Virus record (IMG/VR): IMGVR_UViG_2651869782_000006
From: a virus
Lineage: Duplodnaviria; Heunggongvirae; Uroviricota; Caudoviricetes
Reading direction: 5' to 3' (one strand)
DNA: 5,034 nt
Shown: positions 1-5,034 of the stretch, piece by piece
Layout of the letters: each line of letters opens with the position of its first letter
How positions within the stretch are numbered: position 1 is the stretch's first letter
The notes under the pieces: generated by a model
What the model was told of the DNA's origin: nothing
Database searches by the model: none
The model's input: the letters and a program-made list of their open reading frames with translations, nothing else
Made by a program: the position numbers and the translations under genes

Positions 1-172
1 CTGTATTGCCACGTTTTTTTCGCGTCAGAATTATGGCGGGGCGTACGGGGCCGACTTCGGTCGGGCCGGGTTCTTGTGTAGCCGGTACTGCGAACCTCGT
101 ACGTCTCGCCACCCACAGTTTCGCAGCTCTGGATGGTGAGTTTTCACAACTTACTACACAAGGGGCCACACC

Positions 173-403
173 ATGGCAAACCGCAAACCACACCGCGCTA
201 TCGCGGAGCGTCGTCACATCCAGACTGAAATCAACCGCAGACTTTCCCGCGCATCACGCGTCGCGCAAATCATGCACATCAATATGTTGCATGAGCGCAG
301 CCACGCACTATCAAACATTTATTCCGCCTCTGTTTTCAGCTATCTGGCGGATGATCTGCACGAGCTTCAACAGCTCATCCAGCAGCAAAACAAACTCCAT
401 TAA
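173..403 (+). CDS. hypothetical small basic protein (76 aa), possibly a DNA-binding regulator; function not recognised
   Basis: ATG at 173 preceded by AAGGGG (160-165) at 7-nt spacing; TAA at 401-403. The translation has a basic N-terminus (RKPHRAIAERRH) and reads like a real, likely helical protein. It lies upstream of and in the same orientation as the replication gene. The overlapping ORF 6-479 in another frame is Ser/Cys-rich and looks spurious. No family recognised. Confidence 0.5.
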   Translation: MANRKPHRAIAERRHIQTEINRRLSRASRVAQIMHINMLHERSHALSNIYSASVFSYLADDLHELQQLIQQQNKLH

Positions 404-475
404 TTCCTGTTCCGGGCCTTTCCTGCACCTTGCGGCGGGAGGCCTTCACACATCTGTAACAAGAGGATTGCCGCA

Positions 476-841
476 ATGATTCTCGCCAACGACTTTCTTG
501 AATACCTGCTCAACACAGAACGTGATCTTGCCGCTCGCGTGCGTGATCGTTATGACATGTACCAGAAATCCCTGCCTGTACCGCAGCTCGCTGACGGAAA
601 GATTGTTATTGATGGTCGCTACATGATTGACAGCCACGAGGGAAATTGCAGGCTTTACCGCATTGAAGGTGGCACCCCGTCCGTTATTGGCATTTACCAG
701 CGCCCATCCTCTGCAATCGTCGATGTGATTGCCGACAGCATCCGCATCACACATCGCCATGCCGACACAGAAGACACCGTGCTGGAAATTCAGCGGCTGG
801 CTACAGTCTGCCGCGACACCCTGAATGGCATGACGAAGTAA
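476..841 (+). CDS. hypothetical protein (121 aa), function not recognised
   Basis: ATG at 476 preceded by AAGAGGA (461-467) at 8-nt spacing; TAA at 839-841, only 6 nt before the ATG of the replication gene, suggesting translational coupling. Balanced, non-repetitive composition. No family recognised. Confidence 0.55.
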   Translation: MILANDFLEYLLNTERDLAARVRDRYDMYQKSLPVPQLADGKIVIDGRYMIDSHEGNCRLYRIEGGTPSVIGIYQRPSSAIVDVIADSIRITHRHADTEDTVLEIQRLATVCRDTLNGMTK

Positions 842-847
842 ATCACT

Positions 848-3672
848 ATGACGGCAGAGTACATCAGGGACTGGCAACAACCGCGCCACGCAGTGGGGCG
901 TGAAGGAACGGGGATCCCCGCTCCTGAATCCACGCTTTCCTCCTGGCTGGATGCCTACCGGGTAGAGAACGAGCGCCGCCAAGAAATGGCTGATGCGGCG
1001 TTCTCCGCCACGCCGCTGGGCAACCTGATTAATAAAAGCCTGGACGCACAGGAAAAACAGGACAAAACCATCACACTGGCAGGAGACGCCAGAAAACAGG
1101 CACGCGGCGCGGTGGATGAAGCCATGGCCTCGCTGCGCCTGCTGCCGTCCTATCTGCGCGATCCGCTTATTCGCCACCTCTCCTTCCTGCGCAAAAAACA
1201 GGAAGCCGATCGCCAGAAAGGCAAAAAGAGCTGGCAGGCAGAACGCTACGCGCGCGGAACCCTGCGCAAAATATTCGAACGTCTGGACCACACCGATCAG
1301 CCGCTGGCTGACACCGGGTTATCGCGCCCTTGCCGGACGCGAACGCCTGGACGATTTGCTTTACCTGCCGCAGCTCAACAAACAACAGATACAGACGCTG
1401 GCCACCATGACGGCGGCGATGTTCAGCAGCACATTCGAAAAACTCTGCGATGGCCTTGGCGCCACAGATGGCGAACTGACCATGGAGGTAACGCTGAAGG
1501 CATATCAGATGCTGGCCCGCATGGCGTTACACCTGCACACCATGCCGCCACATTACGAAGCACTGACAACAGACAAAGACCGGAGGAACGAACCGGACAC
1601 GGAACTGCTACCGGGCGCAATCCTTCGCCTGACCTGTGCGGAATGGTGGAAACGCAAACTGTGGCTGTTACGTTGCGAGTGGAGAGAAGAACAACTCCGC
1701 GCCGCCTGTCTGGTTTCCAGAAAAACATCACCCTATCTGAGCCAGGACGCGTTAAGCGAGTTTCACGCACAGCGCGAGAAAACACGCGATTTCCTGAAAA
1801 GTTTCATGCTGGAAAACGAAGACGGGTTCACGATTGATCTCGAGACAGTGTATTACGCGGGAGTAAGTAACCCGGTCCACCGTAAAGCAGAAATGATGGC
1901 CACCATGAAGGGACTGGAACTTCTGGCCGAAGCCCGTGGCGACAAAGCGGTGTTTCTGACTGTCACCTGCCCGTCAAAATACCACGCCACAACAGAGAAC
2001 GGTCATCCGAATCCCAAATGGAACGGGGCCACCATGCGCGACTCCAGCGATTACCTGGTTAACACGTTTTTTGCGGCGGTCCGCAAAAAACTGAACCGCG
2101 ACGGTCTTCGCTGGTATGGCATCCGCACGGTGGAGCCTCACCATGACGGCACCGTGCACTGGCATATGATGGTCTTTGCACATCCGGAAGAAATCGAAAC
2201 CATCGTGTCCCATCACCCGCGATATTGCCATTCAGGAAGACCGCCACGAGCTGGGCAATGACATAACTCCGCGCTTTAAGGCGGAGTACGTAGACGGCTC
2301 AAAAGGCACACCAACCAGCTACATCGCCACCTACATCGGAAAGAACCTGGACAGCCGCGCCGTGGATGGCATCGACCCGAAAACGGGCAAGCCACGCGTT
2401 GACCACGAAACCGGAAAATCAATGGCAGAGAGCGTGGAACGCGCCATCGGCTGGGCGCGCCTTCACCGGGTCCGCCAGTTCCAGTTCTTTGGCATTCCCT
2501 CTCGTCAGGTATGGCGTGAACTCCGCCGCCTTGCCAGCCAGATGGCACGCAACCCGGAAGGCCCACAACGGCTGAAGGATGATGCAATGGATGCGGTACT
2601 CGCTGCCGCTGATGCCGGGTGTTTTGCCACCTACATTGAGAAACAGGGCGGCGTACTTGTTCCACGCAAAGACTACCTGATTCGCACCGCCTACGACCTC
2701 GCAGATGAGCTGAACGATTACGGCGAACAGAGCGTACAGATTTACGGGATCTGGTCACCACTCATCGGGGAGTCTTCCCGTGTGTGCACACATCCGGATA
2801 ACTGGAAGCTGGTAAGACGTAAACCGGAAGCGGAAGACAGCGCCCGCGAAAATGGTTTTGACCTTCAGGGCGGCCCTGCCGCCCCTTGGACTCGTGGCAA
2901 TAACTGTCCCCGTGTACAGGAAACAGACAACAACGGGACAGAACAGCCGGAAGAACGGCCAGCACCGTGGCCGCAGCTCCCTGACGGCGTTGAAGTGAAC
3001 GAATGGATGCGCTCACTGAAACGGCACGAACGCCGGGCGCTGATGCGTTCGCTGCGTGACAAACAGGCAAAAAACAGCAGTGATGAAATGCAGAACTGGA
3101 CACAGAGCCGCAAACAGCAACAGCCTTTGCCTGATAACCACGAATTACTCGCTAAAGAATGGCGGGAGTCTGCTGAATCTCTCGGCCTGCATATCGGTGA
3201 ACAGCAGATGCAGCACCTGTTACGGGGCGGCAGTCTGTACGTTGACGGCAGCATCATTGCACCGCAGGGATTTGAAATTGTACGCAAACCGGATACCCGA
3301 CCGGACAGCCGAATCACGCAGCTCTGGCAACGCCTGAGCCGTAACCACGGCGTAAGCAGCACGGAGATCCGCCATAACCCAGTCGCCAGCTATCTGGAAC
3401 AACTAGGGGCATCAGACCCCGAAGCCGCCGCACGCCTGGCATCCACACTTCAGCAAGACCAGAACACCATGAAAACACCCGTTACCGTACTTTCTGACAT
3501 GCTGCGCGCCATCCGCGACGCAGAGCACGAACAGAGAATCAGTGAAACAACTGAACGCGCCCGCCGCAAAGCAGACCTGCTGCGGGGTGACCTGACCAGT
3601 GGAAACAAAAAACAGACAGAAACGGGATTCACAAATCCCGTAAATGAGCAAAAAACGCGCCGCGAAATATGA
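848..3672 (+). pseudogene. A: rolling-circle replication initiation endonuclease, phage P2 gene A family (HUH superfamily), interrupted by two apparent single-base insertions (genuine pseudogene or homopolymer sequencing error)
   Basis: Three overlapping ORF-track segments in three frames read as one protein: 848 to about 1316 (frame of ORF 848..1837), about 1317 to about 2210 (frame of ORF 1116..2261), and about 2211 to 3672 (frame of ORF 2176..3672, TGA at 3670-3672). Outside these intervals each ORF translates to Cys/Arg-rich out-of-frame-looking sequence. An HUH-type motif, VHWHMMVF, is encoded at 2154-2177. A paired-tyrosine motif, SYIATYIGKN, has Tyr codons at 2320-2322 and 2332-2334, the YxxxY arrangement of phiX174 A / P2 A-type initiators. 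The composite would be about 940 aa. Confidence 0.75.
3606..3647. repeat. direct repeat copy 1 (42 bp) containing palindrome ACGGGATT-CACA-AATCCCGT (3622-3641); lies inside the 3' end of the replication gene
   Basis: Hand alignment of 3606-3647 against 3679-3720 gives 34/42 matches. Both 8-bp palindrome arms are identical between copies while the 4-nt spacer differs completely (CACA vs TCAG). Confidence 0.6.
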
Positions 3673-3678
3673 AGCGCG

Positions 3679-3720
3679 CACAAAACAGGCAAAAACGGGA
3701 TTTCAGAATCCCGTAAACGA
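3679..3720. repeat. direct repeat copy 2 (42 bp) containing palindrome ACGGGATT-TCAG-AATCCCGT (3695-3714); lies in the intergenic region upstream of parM
   Basis: Same alignment as copy 1; the copies are offset by 73 bp. Copy 2 ends 28 bp before the parM ATG. Confidence 0.6.
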
Positions 3721-3748
3721 TTAATTAATCAACATAAGGAAAAGCGAC

Positions 3749-4708
3749 ATGAAAATTTGTATCGACGACGGCTCCACCAACATCAAGCTGGCATGGACTG
3801 AGAACGGCGAACGCCGCAACGCCATCAGCCCGAACAGCTTCAAGTCGGAATGGTCTGCGCCGTTCGGTGGCACGCAGCCCGCGAACTACATGCTTGATAG
3901 CGTGCGCTATGGTTTTGATCCGGTCAGCGATCGCTTTGTCCAGACGACCGACACGCAATACCAGTACAGCGATGTGAATGTCATTGCCATTCATCACGCG
4001 CTGGTCAAATCAGGCATCACACCACAGGAAGTGGATGTGGTTGTCACCCTGCCACTGAGCGAATATTTCGACACAAACGCACAGCCGGACATGGCCAACA
4101 TCAACCGCAAAAAAGCAAACGTCATGCGCCCGGTGGAATACCAGAACGGAAAAGCATTCACTATCCGTAACGTACGGGTTATGCCTGAATCCATTCCGGC
4201 TGGCTTTAAAGCACTGGCTGACATGAGTCCGTTTGAATCCCTGCTGATTGTGGATTTAGGCGGAACCACGCTGGATGTGGCAAAGGTTCAGGGACAACTG
4301 GCAGGTATCAGCCAGGTGTTTTGCGATCCACACGTAGGCGTTTCCCTGATGGCCGATGCCGTACTGTCGGTGATGGCCACTAACGGTATGCGCACCAGTC
4401 ACCACATCGCCAATACCATTATCGAACATCGCCATGATGAAGCCTGGCTGCGCCAGCACATCCACAATGACGCGCATTACGCCAGCCTGATGGCGGTTAT
4501 TCGTGAAAAGGAAGAAACACTGAAACAACGCGTGATCCGCGCGCTGGCGGTTTTTTCGGGTTACGGGCGGGTGATGGTTGTCGGTGGCGGGGCGGAGATT
4601 GTGGCACCCGCTATCCGCGAAGCCTGCGGAGTTAATGCGACTTTCATCGCGGACGGAGTGCCACAATTTGCTCTGGTTAATGGGCTGTACGCAATGAACA
4701 AGGAGTAA
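3749..4708 (+). CDS. parM: ParM/StbA-family actin-like plasmid segregation ATPase (type II partition)
   Basis: ATG at 3749 with AAGGA (3736-3740) at 8-nt spacing; TAA at 4706-4708. Actin-fold signatures are present: N-terminal phosphate-1 motif IDDGSTNIKLAW, ISPNSFK, YSDVNVIAIHHAL, PESIPAG, phosphate-2 motif SLLIVDLGGTTLD, and adenosine motif VVGGGAEIV. By recollection it is collinear with plasmid R1 ParM along the full length at roughly 40-50% identity (not computed). Confidence 0.9.
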   Translation: MKICIDDGSTNIKLAWTENGERRNAISPNSFKSEWSAPFGGTQPANYMLDSVRYGFDPVSDRFVQTTDTQYQYSDVNVIAIHHALVKSGITPQEVDVVVTLPLSEYFDTNAQPDMANINRKKANVMRPVEYQNGKAFTIRNVRVMPESIPAGFKALADMSPFESLLIVDLGGTTLDVAKVQGQLAGISQVFCDPHVGVSLMADAVLSVMATNGMRTSHHIANTIIEHRHDEAWLRQHIHNDAHYASLMAVIREKEETLKQRVIRALAVFSGYGRVMVVGGGAEIVAPAIREACGVNATFIADGVPQFALVNGLYAMNKE

Positions 4709-4712
4709 ACCA

Positions 4713-5024
4713 ATGACGACACCAACCAGAAGAATAAGTTTCTATCTGAAGCCAGCTGCCGTCAAGAACGAAGGAGAAGCATGCGCCTGGCTGGACAGCC
4801 TTACACCAGAAGCCCGCAAAAGCGGCCAACGCGTGGCTTTTCTGGCCGGGCTGGCACTTCTGAAGACGAATCCGGCAGAGGCTTACCGACTGGCCGCATG
4901 GGCTGATGATGAGATGTTACCTGTGACACAAATCAGCTCAAAAAAGTTTGAAGCACAGTCTGCACCAGTGGCTAAGATAACCAGCCAGATGGCTGGGAAT
5001 ATCCGGGCGTTATTTCCTGAGTAA
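4713..5024 (+). CDS. parR: ParR/StbB-like centromere-binding adaptor protein (likely ribbon-helix-helix)
   Basis: ATG at 4713 with AAGGAG (4700-4705) at 7-nt spacing, 4 nt after the parM stop; TAA at 5022-5024. At 103 aa, and sitting immediately downstream of parM, it fits the parM-parR operon layout. The N-terminus (TRRISFYLKP ... LDSLTPEARKS ... AFLAGLAL) resembles the R1 ParR N-terminal DNA-binding region as I recall it. Confidence 0.65.
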   Translation: MTTPTRRISFYLKPAAVKNEGEACAWLDSLTPEARKSGQRVAFLAGLALLKTNPAEAYRLAAWADDEMLPVTQISSKKFEAQSAPVAKITSQMAGNIRALFPE

Positions 5025-5034
5025 AAGCATCTGC

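Follow-up and report, generated by a model that had tools for sequence, protein, structure and literature searches.

Apart from two extra bases, the region 848–3672 of the analyzed window is an ordinary P88/P2-type replication-initiator gene of an Escherichia coli prophage. As written, this copy cannot work, since its two catalytic motifs lie in different frames and translation from the start codon yields 150 native residues followed by 179 residues that are out of frame. The window, which is the entire stretch of DNA that was studied, has the same extent as contig JHRV01000108.1 (5,034 bp) from the draft E. coli assembly GCA_001265655.1 (WGS JHRV01). There is, in our assessment, an even chance that both extra bases are an artifact of a consensus built from mixed alleles and are absent from the bacterial DNA.

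Genomic context and identity of the gene

The genes in the window make up the early module of a prophage of the P88-like group (Xuanwuvirus, P2-like). Positions 1–5024 share 96.0–96.5% nucleotide identity with P88, with five genes in common order coding for a derepression protein, a 121-aa protein, the replication endonuclease, ParM, and a partition protein. The modules containing the replication endonuclease of Xuanwuvirus P88 (SF19_gp16, YP_009113059.1) and its E. coli prophage copies are approximately 96% identical to the window over 5 kb. Both ends of the contig, which is complete at 5 kb, fall within prophage sequence, as one would expect at places where assemblies are interrupted by related prophages. 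The gene was found at 1,637 places in 1,445 E. coli genomes, and approximately 12% of the carriers possess more than one copy.

The homologous gene is a single open reading frame (ORF) of 2,823 nt and 940 codons in P88, in 80 IMG/VR loci, and in approximately 1,320 complete E. coli genomes. The gene in the window is exactly 2 nt longer than the single ORFs of P88, P88_4B11, and vB_EcoM-569R5, and among all copies examined it alone carries +1 insertions at 1297–1300 and 2209–2214. The initial annotation had regarded the three frames as one split replication gene and had proposed an alignment to intact homologs; the split is indeed real in the sequence, and the intact homologs read through in one frame. 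Once both insertions are removed, the predicted product has 940 aa and a mass of 107 kDa.

The repaired protein matched the Pfam family Phage_GPA (PF05840) with 434.9 bits (cut-off 31.4) over profile positions 2–321 of 321, whereas the unrepaired fragments reached 369.7 bits (profile 2–275) and 49.3 bits (profile 271–321). It shares 31% identity over 687 aa (E = 1e-78) with gpA of phage P2 (NP_046795.1), an HUH/two-tyrosine initiator of rolling-circle replication, including the conserved segments VEPHHDGTxHWHMM and YIAxYIxKN. P2 gpA differs in being shorter (761 aa), the repaired protein having a longer C-terminal region, and in being encoded without interruption. P2-type A proteins act in cis. 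According to the P2 record, the ori nick lies within gene A itself.

Table 1. Features of the replication endonuclease gene in the window.
Feature	Position	Strand	Remarks
gpA-family (P2 A-like) HUH/Y2 replication endonuclease gene	848–3672	+	2,825 nt with two +1 insertions; PF05840 and P2 gpA match
Native frame, part 1 (residues 1–150)	848–1296	+	ORF reading then continues out of frame to a stop at 1837
Extra base 1	1297–1300	+	Codons 150/151; placed by alignment to homolog alleles; not a homopolymer
Perfect 6-bp inverted repeat TCAGCC-GCT-GGCTGA	1297–1311	+	Window allele only; stem of 5 bp, or bulged, in the in-frame alleles
Native frame, part 2 (residues 151–455)	1298–2212	+	One base off register relative to part 1
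Phage_GPA (PF05840) catalytic domain	1386–2358	+	Residues 180–503 of the repaired protein; cut by site 2 at profile position ~272 of 321
HUH metal-binding motif H437-W-H439	2157–2165	+	Aligned to HWH of P2 gpA
Extra base 2	2209–2214	+	Codons 455/456; placed by alignment to homolog alleles
Native frame, part 3 (residues 456–940)	2214–3672	+	Gene called at 2362–3672
Catalytic tyrosine pair Y491-I-A-T-Y495 (Y-x3-Y)	2320–2334	+	Aligned to YIAKY of P2 gpA

Reading frames and location of the extra bases

As written, the gene is distributed over an ORF that starts at 848 in frame 2 (329 aa, the last 179 of which are out of frame), an ORF at 1116–2261 in frame 0, and an ORF at 2176–3672 in frame 1. 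The positions given in the initial annotation for the HUH motif and the tyrosine pair were confirmed by the alignment to P2 gpA, and so was their separation, the former lying in frame 0 and the latter in frame 1. All homologs examined carry both motifs on one uninterrupted polypeptide, but the window does not. The three overlapping ORFs could also stem from programmed ribosomal frameshifting or from a gene that is split by design and has assembling fragments, and nothing else speaks for either. Every homolog examined is a single ORF, the frame-2 ORF remains open for 179 codons beyond site 1 with no slippery site or stop-codon stall seen on reading, and the third frame has its earliest ATG at 2362, 3′ of the catalytic tyrosines. 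As the interruption is conserved in no homolog, these explanations were rejected and are given practically no weight.

The initial annotation had assigned the first shift to the GGG at 1316–1318. Removal of a G at this position restores the ORF but replaces the conserved SRWLTP by QPLADT. The homologs, which encode (H/S/G)RWLTPGY, are already in the second frame from approximately 1301, so that the extra base is located at 1297–1300. It is T1297 when compared to the nearest local haplotypes (GA^CAGCC, the DSR allele) and G1300 when compared to the GATCA^CCGC (DHR) alleles. For the second shift, the extra base is T2213 relative to the nearest local haplotype (strain PE15, CCCA^CACCC), C2214 relative to TCCCAT^ACCC, or one C of the CCC at 2209–2211 relative to GCC^ATCACCC (B-type alleles, e.g., P88_4B11). 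The previously suggested deletion within 2209–2211 is therefore admissible, while the alternative at 2216–2218 fits no observed allele.

Relative to the nearest local haplotypes, both insertions are a T between A and CA that yields CCSATCASCC, in a non-homopolymer context. This 10-mer is common to both sites. A motif-specific signature of error or mutation was considered for it post hoc and discarded, the similarity of the allele pairs at the two sites being a sufficient explanation. One unmutated CCNACANCC occurs at 4576–4584.

The initial annotation had favored sequencing error on the grounds that both insertions lie in homopolymer runs. This argument fails for site 1, which lies outside runs under every observed reference allele, and it holds for site 2 relative to one allele class only, the B-type alleles, against which the insertion can be written as CC to CCC. 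Base-calling errors in C or G runs, as made by 454, Ion Torrent, or long-read platforms, are thus very unlikely to be the cause, even though other public frameshifted copies of this gene are homopolymer events. The GGG at 1316–1318 is conserved and lies downstream of the point at which the frame changes. Furthermore, all 15 runs of at least five bases (including T7 and seven A6) match the homolog length in three reference phages, which makes a homopolymer-error platform unlikely, and the 5 kb contain no other indels. Homopolymer error was consequently dismissed as the cause at site 1 and, more generally, in the contig.

Uniqueness of the insertions and absence of decay

Both insertions are private to the window in the alignment with 80 homologs. 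Among these homologs, indels inside the gene are in-frame, with the exception of a few of 1 nt at its extreme 3′ end, and the two insertions are thus more than a chance difference. Exact k-mers spanning the insertion sites had zero occurrences in IMG/VR, the GTDB representative genomes, and the JGI metagenomes. BLAST searches with 71-nt queries against 5,426 complete E. coli genomes retrieved no full-query match of 100% identity at either site; the best matches all contained a one-base gap (site 1, 98.6%; site 2, 97.2%). On the protein level, the 381-aa middle fragment was a singleton in a set of approximately 15 billion proteins, exact-protein look-ups returned only this contig, and none of the six matches to the out-of-frame peptide contained the site-1 junction. 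Related elements sharing the interruptions, which would have pointed to a real split or a pseudogenized gene, were hence not encountered: no other sequence searched has either insertion. The copies of the same gene annotated by PGAP as frameshifted in strains ETEC4071 (QDW56_RS07850) and CAU16175 (GTP13_RS03100) contain one frame-breaking single-base insertion each, but these are homopolymer events (A5 to A6 and A6 to A7) at positions equivalent to 1223 and 3069 of the window.

The repaired frame contains no stop codon. The window has 10 private substitutions in the gene (3 synonymous and 7 non-synonymous), which is within the range of the intact homologs, whose singletons total 163 synonymous and 168 non-synonymous changes. 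All four neighboring genes are intact, and no other indel distinguishes the window from P88. A long-standing pseudogene was rejected based on the open repaired frame and the ordinary substitutions, and with the intact neighbors these findings also give no support to the idea of a decaying or helper-dependent element, in the sense of long-term decay, that had been raised initially. Since no other searched sequence has the insertions, the gene either died very recently or is an artifact of the assembly. The initial choice between a dead gene and a sequence error still names the right two options, with error slightly favored.

Allele structure at the two sites

When the whole gene was scanned, shift-consistent polymorphic patches with three differences turned up at two places only, namely the two frameshift sites. 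At each of them the window combines two common in-frame alleles into their +1 union, so that a single deletion converts it into either of two different alleles. This two-allele property was shown by 13% of simulated random insertions; for the multi-base type observed at site 1, the figure was 1.3%. Haplotypes exist for both allele classes; P88_4B11 and three further haplotypes (L021, L053, and L063), which combine GATCACC with CCATCACC, are separated from the window over 5 kb by these two gaps only. The flanks of site 1 are identical to one allele class for approximately 70 nt. Inference of the ancestral allele from flanking haplotypes in the first 80 loci was precluded by the mosaic nature of the family, and targeted k-mer searches resolved it locally. 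In the gene family as a whole, the alleles at the two polymorphic patches are distinguished by one insertion together with a deletion close by, and one of the patches lies on a quasipalindrome.

Origin of the insertions

A mixed-allele consensus would arise as follows. The draft consensus may have been built over two co-resident P88-like prophage alleles of approximately 96–97% identity, the second copy being hypothetical. At a shifted three-base patch, aligners would write one insertion and one deletion (GATCA-CCGC versus GA-CAGCCGC, and GCC-ATCACCC versus TCCCA-CACCC), and a consensus or polishing step that kept the inserted columns and omitted the matching deletions would generate exactly GATCAGCCGC and TCCCATCACCC. 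In the reads, mixed haplotypes would appear as GATCACCGC together with GACAGCCGC and as CCATCACCC together with CCCACACCC, with few or no reads containing GATCAGCCGC or CCCATCACCC.

Several observations favor an artifact of this kind. The insertions are private to the contig, they coincide with the only two patches of three shifted differences, and at both sites a single deletion leads to either of two common alleles whose haplotypes exist. The share of multi-copy carriers and the contig ends inside the prophage are in line with co-residence, and there is no further sign of damage in the repaired frame, the substitutions, the neighboring genes, or the indel pattern. Other observations count against it. 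A pure de Bruijn-graph assembler outputs only k-mers that are present in the reads, so that an overlap-consensus or read-mapping polishing step would be needed. RefSeq protein accessions exist for the other genes of the contig, which, in view of RefSeq quality control, suggests that the assembly overall is not riddled with frameshifts. Copying-model and best-two-donor chimera tests using sampled haplotypes showed the window to be divergent, but did not single it out as an outlier. The exact flank match at site 1 makes a simple one-base event equally parsimonious there, and the inverted repeat perfected at this site is a signature of a real mutational mechanism.

It is somewhat less probable, but still a serious alternative to the mixed-allele artifact, that the insertions are genuine and recent and that the replication gene of the prophage was knocked out in this strain. 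At site 1, a quasipalindrome-templated (template-switch) insertion would have converted the hairpin CAGCC/GGCTG into TCAGCC/GGCTGA, and a second, by then neutral, +1 event would have followed at site 2 in a tolerant loop. With the HUH motif and the tyrosines on separate polypeptides and the A protein acting in cis, the rolling-circle start would be lost and the element would persist as a chromosomal passenger only. The site-1 hairpin with its 3-nt loop has a predicted stability of −5.8 kcal/mol, compared to −1.9 to −4.4 kcal/mol in the in-frame alleles, and only 2% of simulated random insertions landed in a perfect inverted repeat of at least 6 bp. Quasipalindrome template-switch insertions are an established class of E. 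coli mutations (PMC7202029), for which multi-nucleotide outcomes have also been described (PMC8604942). Site 1 resembles the quasipalindrome reporters of the Lovett laboratory (PMC7202029) in that a one-base insertion perfects an imperfect inverted repeat; the likeness is restricted to this site and sequence-based, and a mixed-allele consensus would give the identical sequence.

Further points in favor of genuine mutation are the location of the extra bases outside homopolymers and the correctness of all long runs, both atypical of sequencing error, the usual pseudogene appearance of two hits in one gene with intact neighbors, and the annotated frameshifted copies of the gene in complete genomes. 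Against it stands the lack of either insertion among approximately 1,800 gene copies and the very large collections searched; without independent occurrence, the sites are not strong hotspots. Moreover, both events fell on the only two patches of this type, for which the joint chance is approximately 0.002 or less if independent random events are assumed. Site 2 also has no convincing templating repeat, the distant 6-bp pair TGATGG (2167–2172) and CCATCA (2210–2215) found by eye being at chance level by hand estimate, and private or non-synonymous substitutions are not in excess, as they would be after time spent as a pseudogene. Rather improbable is the more specific reading that both insertions are genuine as the uncompensated +1 intermediate of a recurrent process in which a nearby compensating deletion follows the template-switch insertion; this process would give rise to the shifted multi-nucleotide polymorphisms of P88-type gpA. 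Finding GATCAGCCGCTGGCTGA and CCCATCACCCGCGAT independently in unrelated strains, allowing for variation in the flanks, would speak for recurrent mutation.

Implications

If the insertions are a mixed-allele artifact, they constitute a methodological warning for genomes in which related prophages co-exist, as a consensus over shifted multi-base polymorphisms could then mimic pseudogene frameshifts outside homopolymers. If the insertions are real, the contig would add another case of a prophage whose replication gene was inactivated by frameshifts; such a fate is common, and the finding would matter little. Only if the improbable +1-intermediate reading were true would the allele pairs DHR/DSR and AIT/SHT of the population be the products of repeated frameshift and rescue in two tolerant loops, and prophages of this type would survive without a working replication gene.

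Genomic context of the replication gene

At 5,034 bp, the window spans all of contig JHRV01000108.1 from the E. coli draft assembly GCA_001265655.1. From end to end it is 96–97% identical to the early regions of Escherichia phage P88 and of further phages and prophages of the Xuanwuvirus group (P2-like Peduoviridae). The gene order of the module matches that of P88, and the four genes neighboring the replication endonuclease are intact. An ORF (6–479) overlaps the C4 antisense RNA, over which the records of P88_4B11 and vB_EcoM-569R5 carry a 618-nt ORF that also overlaps the derepression gene and is labelled “transcriptional regulator” and “hypothetical protein,” respectively. Its PHROG matches fell on the part translating the C4 RNA region, and the annotation may be spurious. 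A plasmid-type ParM (StbA_N/ParM_N) and Plasmid_stab_B pair lies immediately 3′ of the replication gene of this integrating P2-like prophage and is a conserved feature of P88-like phages. In a collection of 15 billion proteins, neither the ParM nor the 121-aa protein of the contig had an exact counterpart elsewhere. The contig starts (1–40) just past a conserved terminator-like hairpin, AACCGCGCCAGCGGTTTTTTT in the upstream flanks of the homologous loci L004–L083, and stops (5015–5034) 10 nt into a downstream module that has several alternatives; each end thus coincides or nearly coincides with a mosaic junction in this phage family.

Features of the contig, hypervariable patches of the replication gene, and frameshifts in other copies
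Feature	Position	Strand	Remarks
C4 antisense RNA	29–116	+	Rfam RF01695, 83.2 bits (gathering score 45), full-length
Derepression protein	173–403		76 aa
121-aa protein	476–841
Replication endonuclease (gpA)	848–3672
Patch at site 1	1294–1303		codons about 148–152; alignment of 80 homologs
Patch at site 2	2206–2218		codons 453–456; alignment of 80 homologs
ParM	3749–4708
Plasmid_stab_B partition protein	4713–5024
L089 (E. coli ETEC4071)	1223 (window equivalent)		A5 to A6; annotated “frameshifted”
L090 (E. coli CAU16175)	3069 (window equivalent)		A6 to A7; annotated “frameshifted”

Identity and reading frames of the replication endonuclease

As initially annotated, the replication gene spans three successive frames. 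It is 2,825 nt long, whereas in P88, P88_4B11, and vB_EcoM-569R5, intact homologs of the kind proposed for comparison, it is read through as a single ORF of 2,823 nt (940 codons). Alignment to the homologs revealed exactly two window-specific one-base insertions and no further gap; removing the two bases yields a stop-free 940-aa protein of 107 kDa, in agreement with the anticipated size of about 105 kDa. The repaired protein contains the Pfam domain Phage_GPA (residues 180–503, 434.9 bits) and shares 31% identity with P2 gpA over 687 residues (E 1e-78). The HWH motif (2157–2165) and the YIATY tyrosine pair (2320–2334), both correctly located at the outset, align to the P2 motifs. The gene is the P88-type ortholog among the HUH/two-tyrosine initiators of the P2 gpA (Phage_GPA) family, and of the family features examined, ORF continuity is the only one that the copy in the window lacks.

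Position and nature of the inserted bases

Homologs read ...TD(H/S/G)RWLTPGY..., and the second frame of the window contains RWLTPGY already from about position 1301. The first extra base therefore lies at 1297–1300 (site 1), whereas the initial annotation had placed it about 19 nt further downstream, in the GGG at 1316–1318. The second lies within 2209–2214 (site 2), where three placements are equivalent, among them the originally proposed CCC (2209–2211). Site 1 is flanked by an imperfect direct repeat at 1283–1316, CTGGACCACACCG/CTGGCTGACACCG, whose copies are 77% identical at a spacing of 21.

Since the family is very mosaic, the closest local haplotypes were sought as references. At site 1, the IMG/VR contigs L097 and L100 match the window across the flanks compared, and the complete E. 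coli genomes RIVM_C037166 and P15-25 are identical to it for 70 nt; all four share two window SNPs first taken as private, and their sole difference is one missing T (CCGA^CAGCC, giving CCGATCAGCC in the window). The closest haplotype at site 2, strain PE15, likewise lacks one T (CCCA^CACCC, giving CCCATCACCC). By comparison with alleles of the other common class (GATCA^CCGC, GCC^ATCACCC; e.g., P88_4B11), the insertions read as +G and +C. Site 1 is not a homopolymer event under any observed allele, contrary to the earlier assignment of both shifts to such runs, and all 15 contig runs of at least five identical bases have the same length as in three reference phages. Homopolymer base-calling error, the explanation originally favored, is thus very improbable and was rejected.

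Uniqueness of the insertions

Neither insertion was found in 80 IMG/VR loci or in about 1,320 full-length copies from complete E. coli genomes (the best 71-nt matches were all one base shorter), and scanning IMG/VR, GTDB representative genomes, and JGI metagenomes for exact k-mers was likewise negative. The 381-aa middle fragment was a singleton in a set of about 15 billion proteins, from which the 329-aa product of the first ORF was absent, and searching for homologs of the out-of-frame peptide that follows site 1 did not recover the insertion. Shared interruptions in related elements, which the initial annotation regarded as indicative of a genuinely split or decayed gene, were thus not seen outside the contig. 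A programmed frameshift, or a gene split into functional parts, was discarded as next to impossible because none of the homologs examined has the interruption.

Two complete-genome copies flagged as “frameshifted” by PGAP (L089 and L090) carry their insertions at positions other than those of the window. The sister strain ETEC4070 has a gene of normal length (2,823 nt), and the ETEC4071 frameshift may therefore be an assembly error. In metagenome assemblies, too, frameshifted fragments change frame at other positions, in one case following an A5 run. The enterobacterial P88-type gpA additionally occurred in GTDB representatives of Gram-positive taxa, namely L085 (Vagococcus sp. WN89Y, 226-kb contig; 85% protein identity) and L087 (a contig of the Planococcaceae MAG UBA3378; 93%), which points to contaminated or mis-binned contigs and not to true host range.

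The repaired frame is open throughout. Among 80 homologs the window had 10 private substitutions (3 synonymous, 7 non-synonymous), at least two of which proved shared after wider haplotype sampling; intact homologs have equally many singletons at a similar ratio (overall 163 synonymous to 168 non-synonymous). Together with the intact neighboring genes, these observations give no sign of long decay of the gene and indicate that the lesions are either very recent or not real.

Origin of the insertions

Both insertions sit in short hypervariable patches at which the common in-frame alleles look as if displaced by one base relative to each other: GATCACCGC (encoding DHR) versus GACAGCCGC (DSR) at site 1, and GCCATCACCC (AIT) versus TCCCACACCC (SHT) at site 2. 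At each patch the window is a +1 superstring of both alleles, so that removing one base or another yields either of them. Of simulated random insertions, 13% had this property, trivially, via an adjacent SNP, and only 1.3% had it with alleles that, like those of site 1, differ at more than one position. A whole-gene scan found about 25 shift-consistent patches, of which only two, exactly the frameshift sites, had three differences; smaller, two-base patches occur elsewhere in gpA. After insertion, the two sites have the 10-mer CCSATCASCC in common, which is absent from the rest of the window. Two independent random events at both patches are unlikely, and this improbable coincidence implies that the insertions are somehow linked to the shifted polymorphisms. 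The DHR/DSR and AIT/SHT alleles themselves suggest past compensated frameshifts or template switching.

The preferred explanation, to which we assign about even chances, is an assembly consensus artefact over two related prophages. The strain would carry two related P88-like prophages. To place reads or super-reads derived from the second allele on the first, one insertion plus one deletion would be needed at just these two patches, and a consensus or polishing step retaining the inserted columns would produce the observed union of alleles. More than one gene copy is present in about 12% of gene-bearing E. coli genomes, a 5-kb contig terminating within prophage sequence is compatible with an assembly broken at repeats, and there are haplotypes that combine the required alleles at the two sites and show only these two gaps relative to the window over 5 kb. 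Such an artefact would explain the location and uniqueness of the insertions and the absence of other damage. We infer both the second prophage copy and the assembler behavior; a pure de Bruijn assembler is incapable of yielding such a union, no description of the assembly method of the draft was found in the literature, and chimera tests against the sampled haplotypes did not single out the window.

Somewhat less probably, both insertions are real, recent mutations. The site 1 insertion converts CAGCC-GCT-GGCTG (5 bp) or a bulged TCA-CC form into the perfect 6-bp hairpin TCAGCC-GCT-GGCTGA, with a predicted DNA folding energy of −5.8 kcal/mol versus −1.9 to −4.4 for the in-frame alleles, and only 2% of random insertions landed in such an inverted repeat. 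Perfecting a hairpin in this way is the hallmark of quasipalindrome template-switch mutagenesis, which is documented to cause +1 frameshifts as well as multi-nucleotide changes (PMC7202029, PMC8604942). The mechanism could also account for the shifted population alleles at site 1. However, site 2 is without a convincing template, and no second independent instance of either insertion occurred in very large samples, so that the sites are not strong hotspots.

Consequences for replication

Frameshifted prophage genes and draft-assembly frameshift artefacts are both commonplace, and nothing here is thus new in kind. As written, the N-terminal ORF encodes 150 native residues before the native sequence ends, the HUH motif and the tyrosines are in separate frames, and the third frame has its first ATG at 2362, past the tyrosines. 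Should the insertions be genuine, the prophage would therefore be unable to initiate rolling-circle replication, and since the P2 A protein acts in cis, rescue by a helper would be doubtful.
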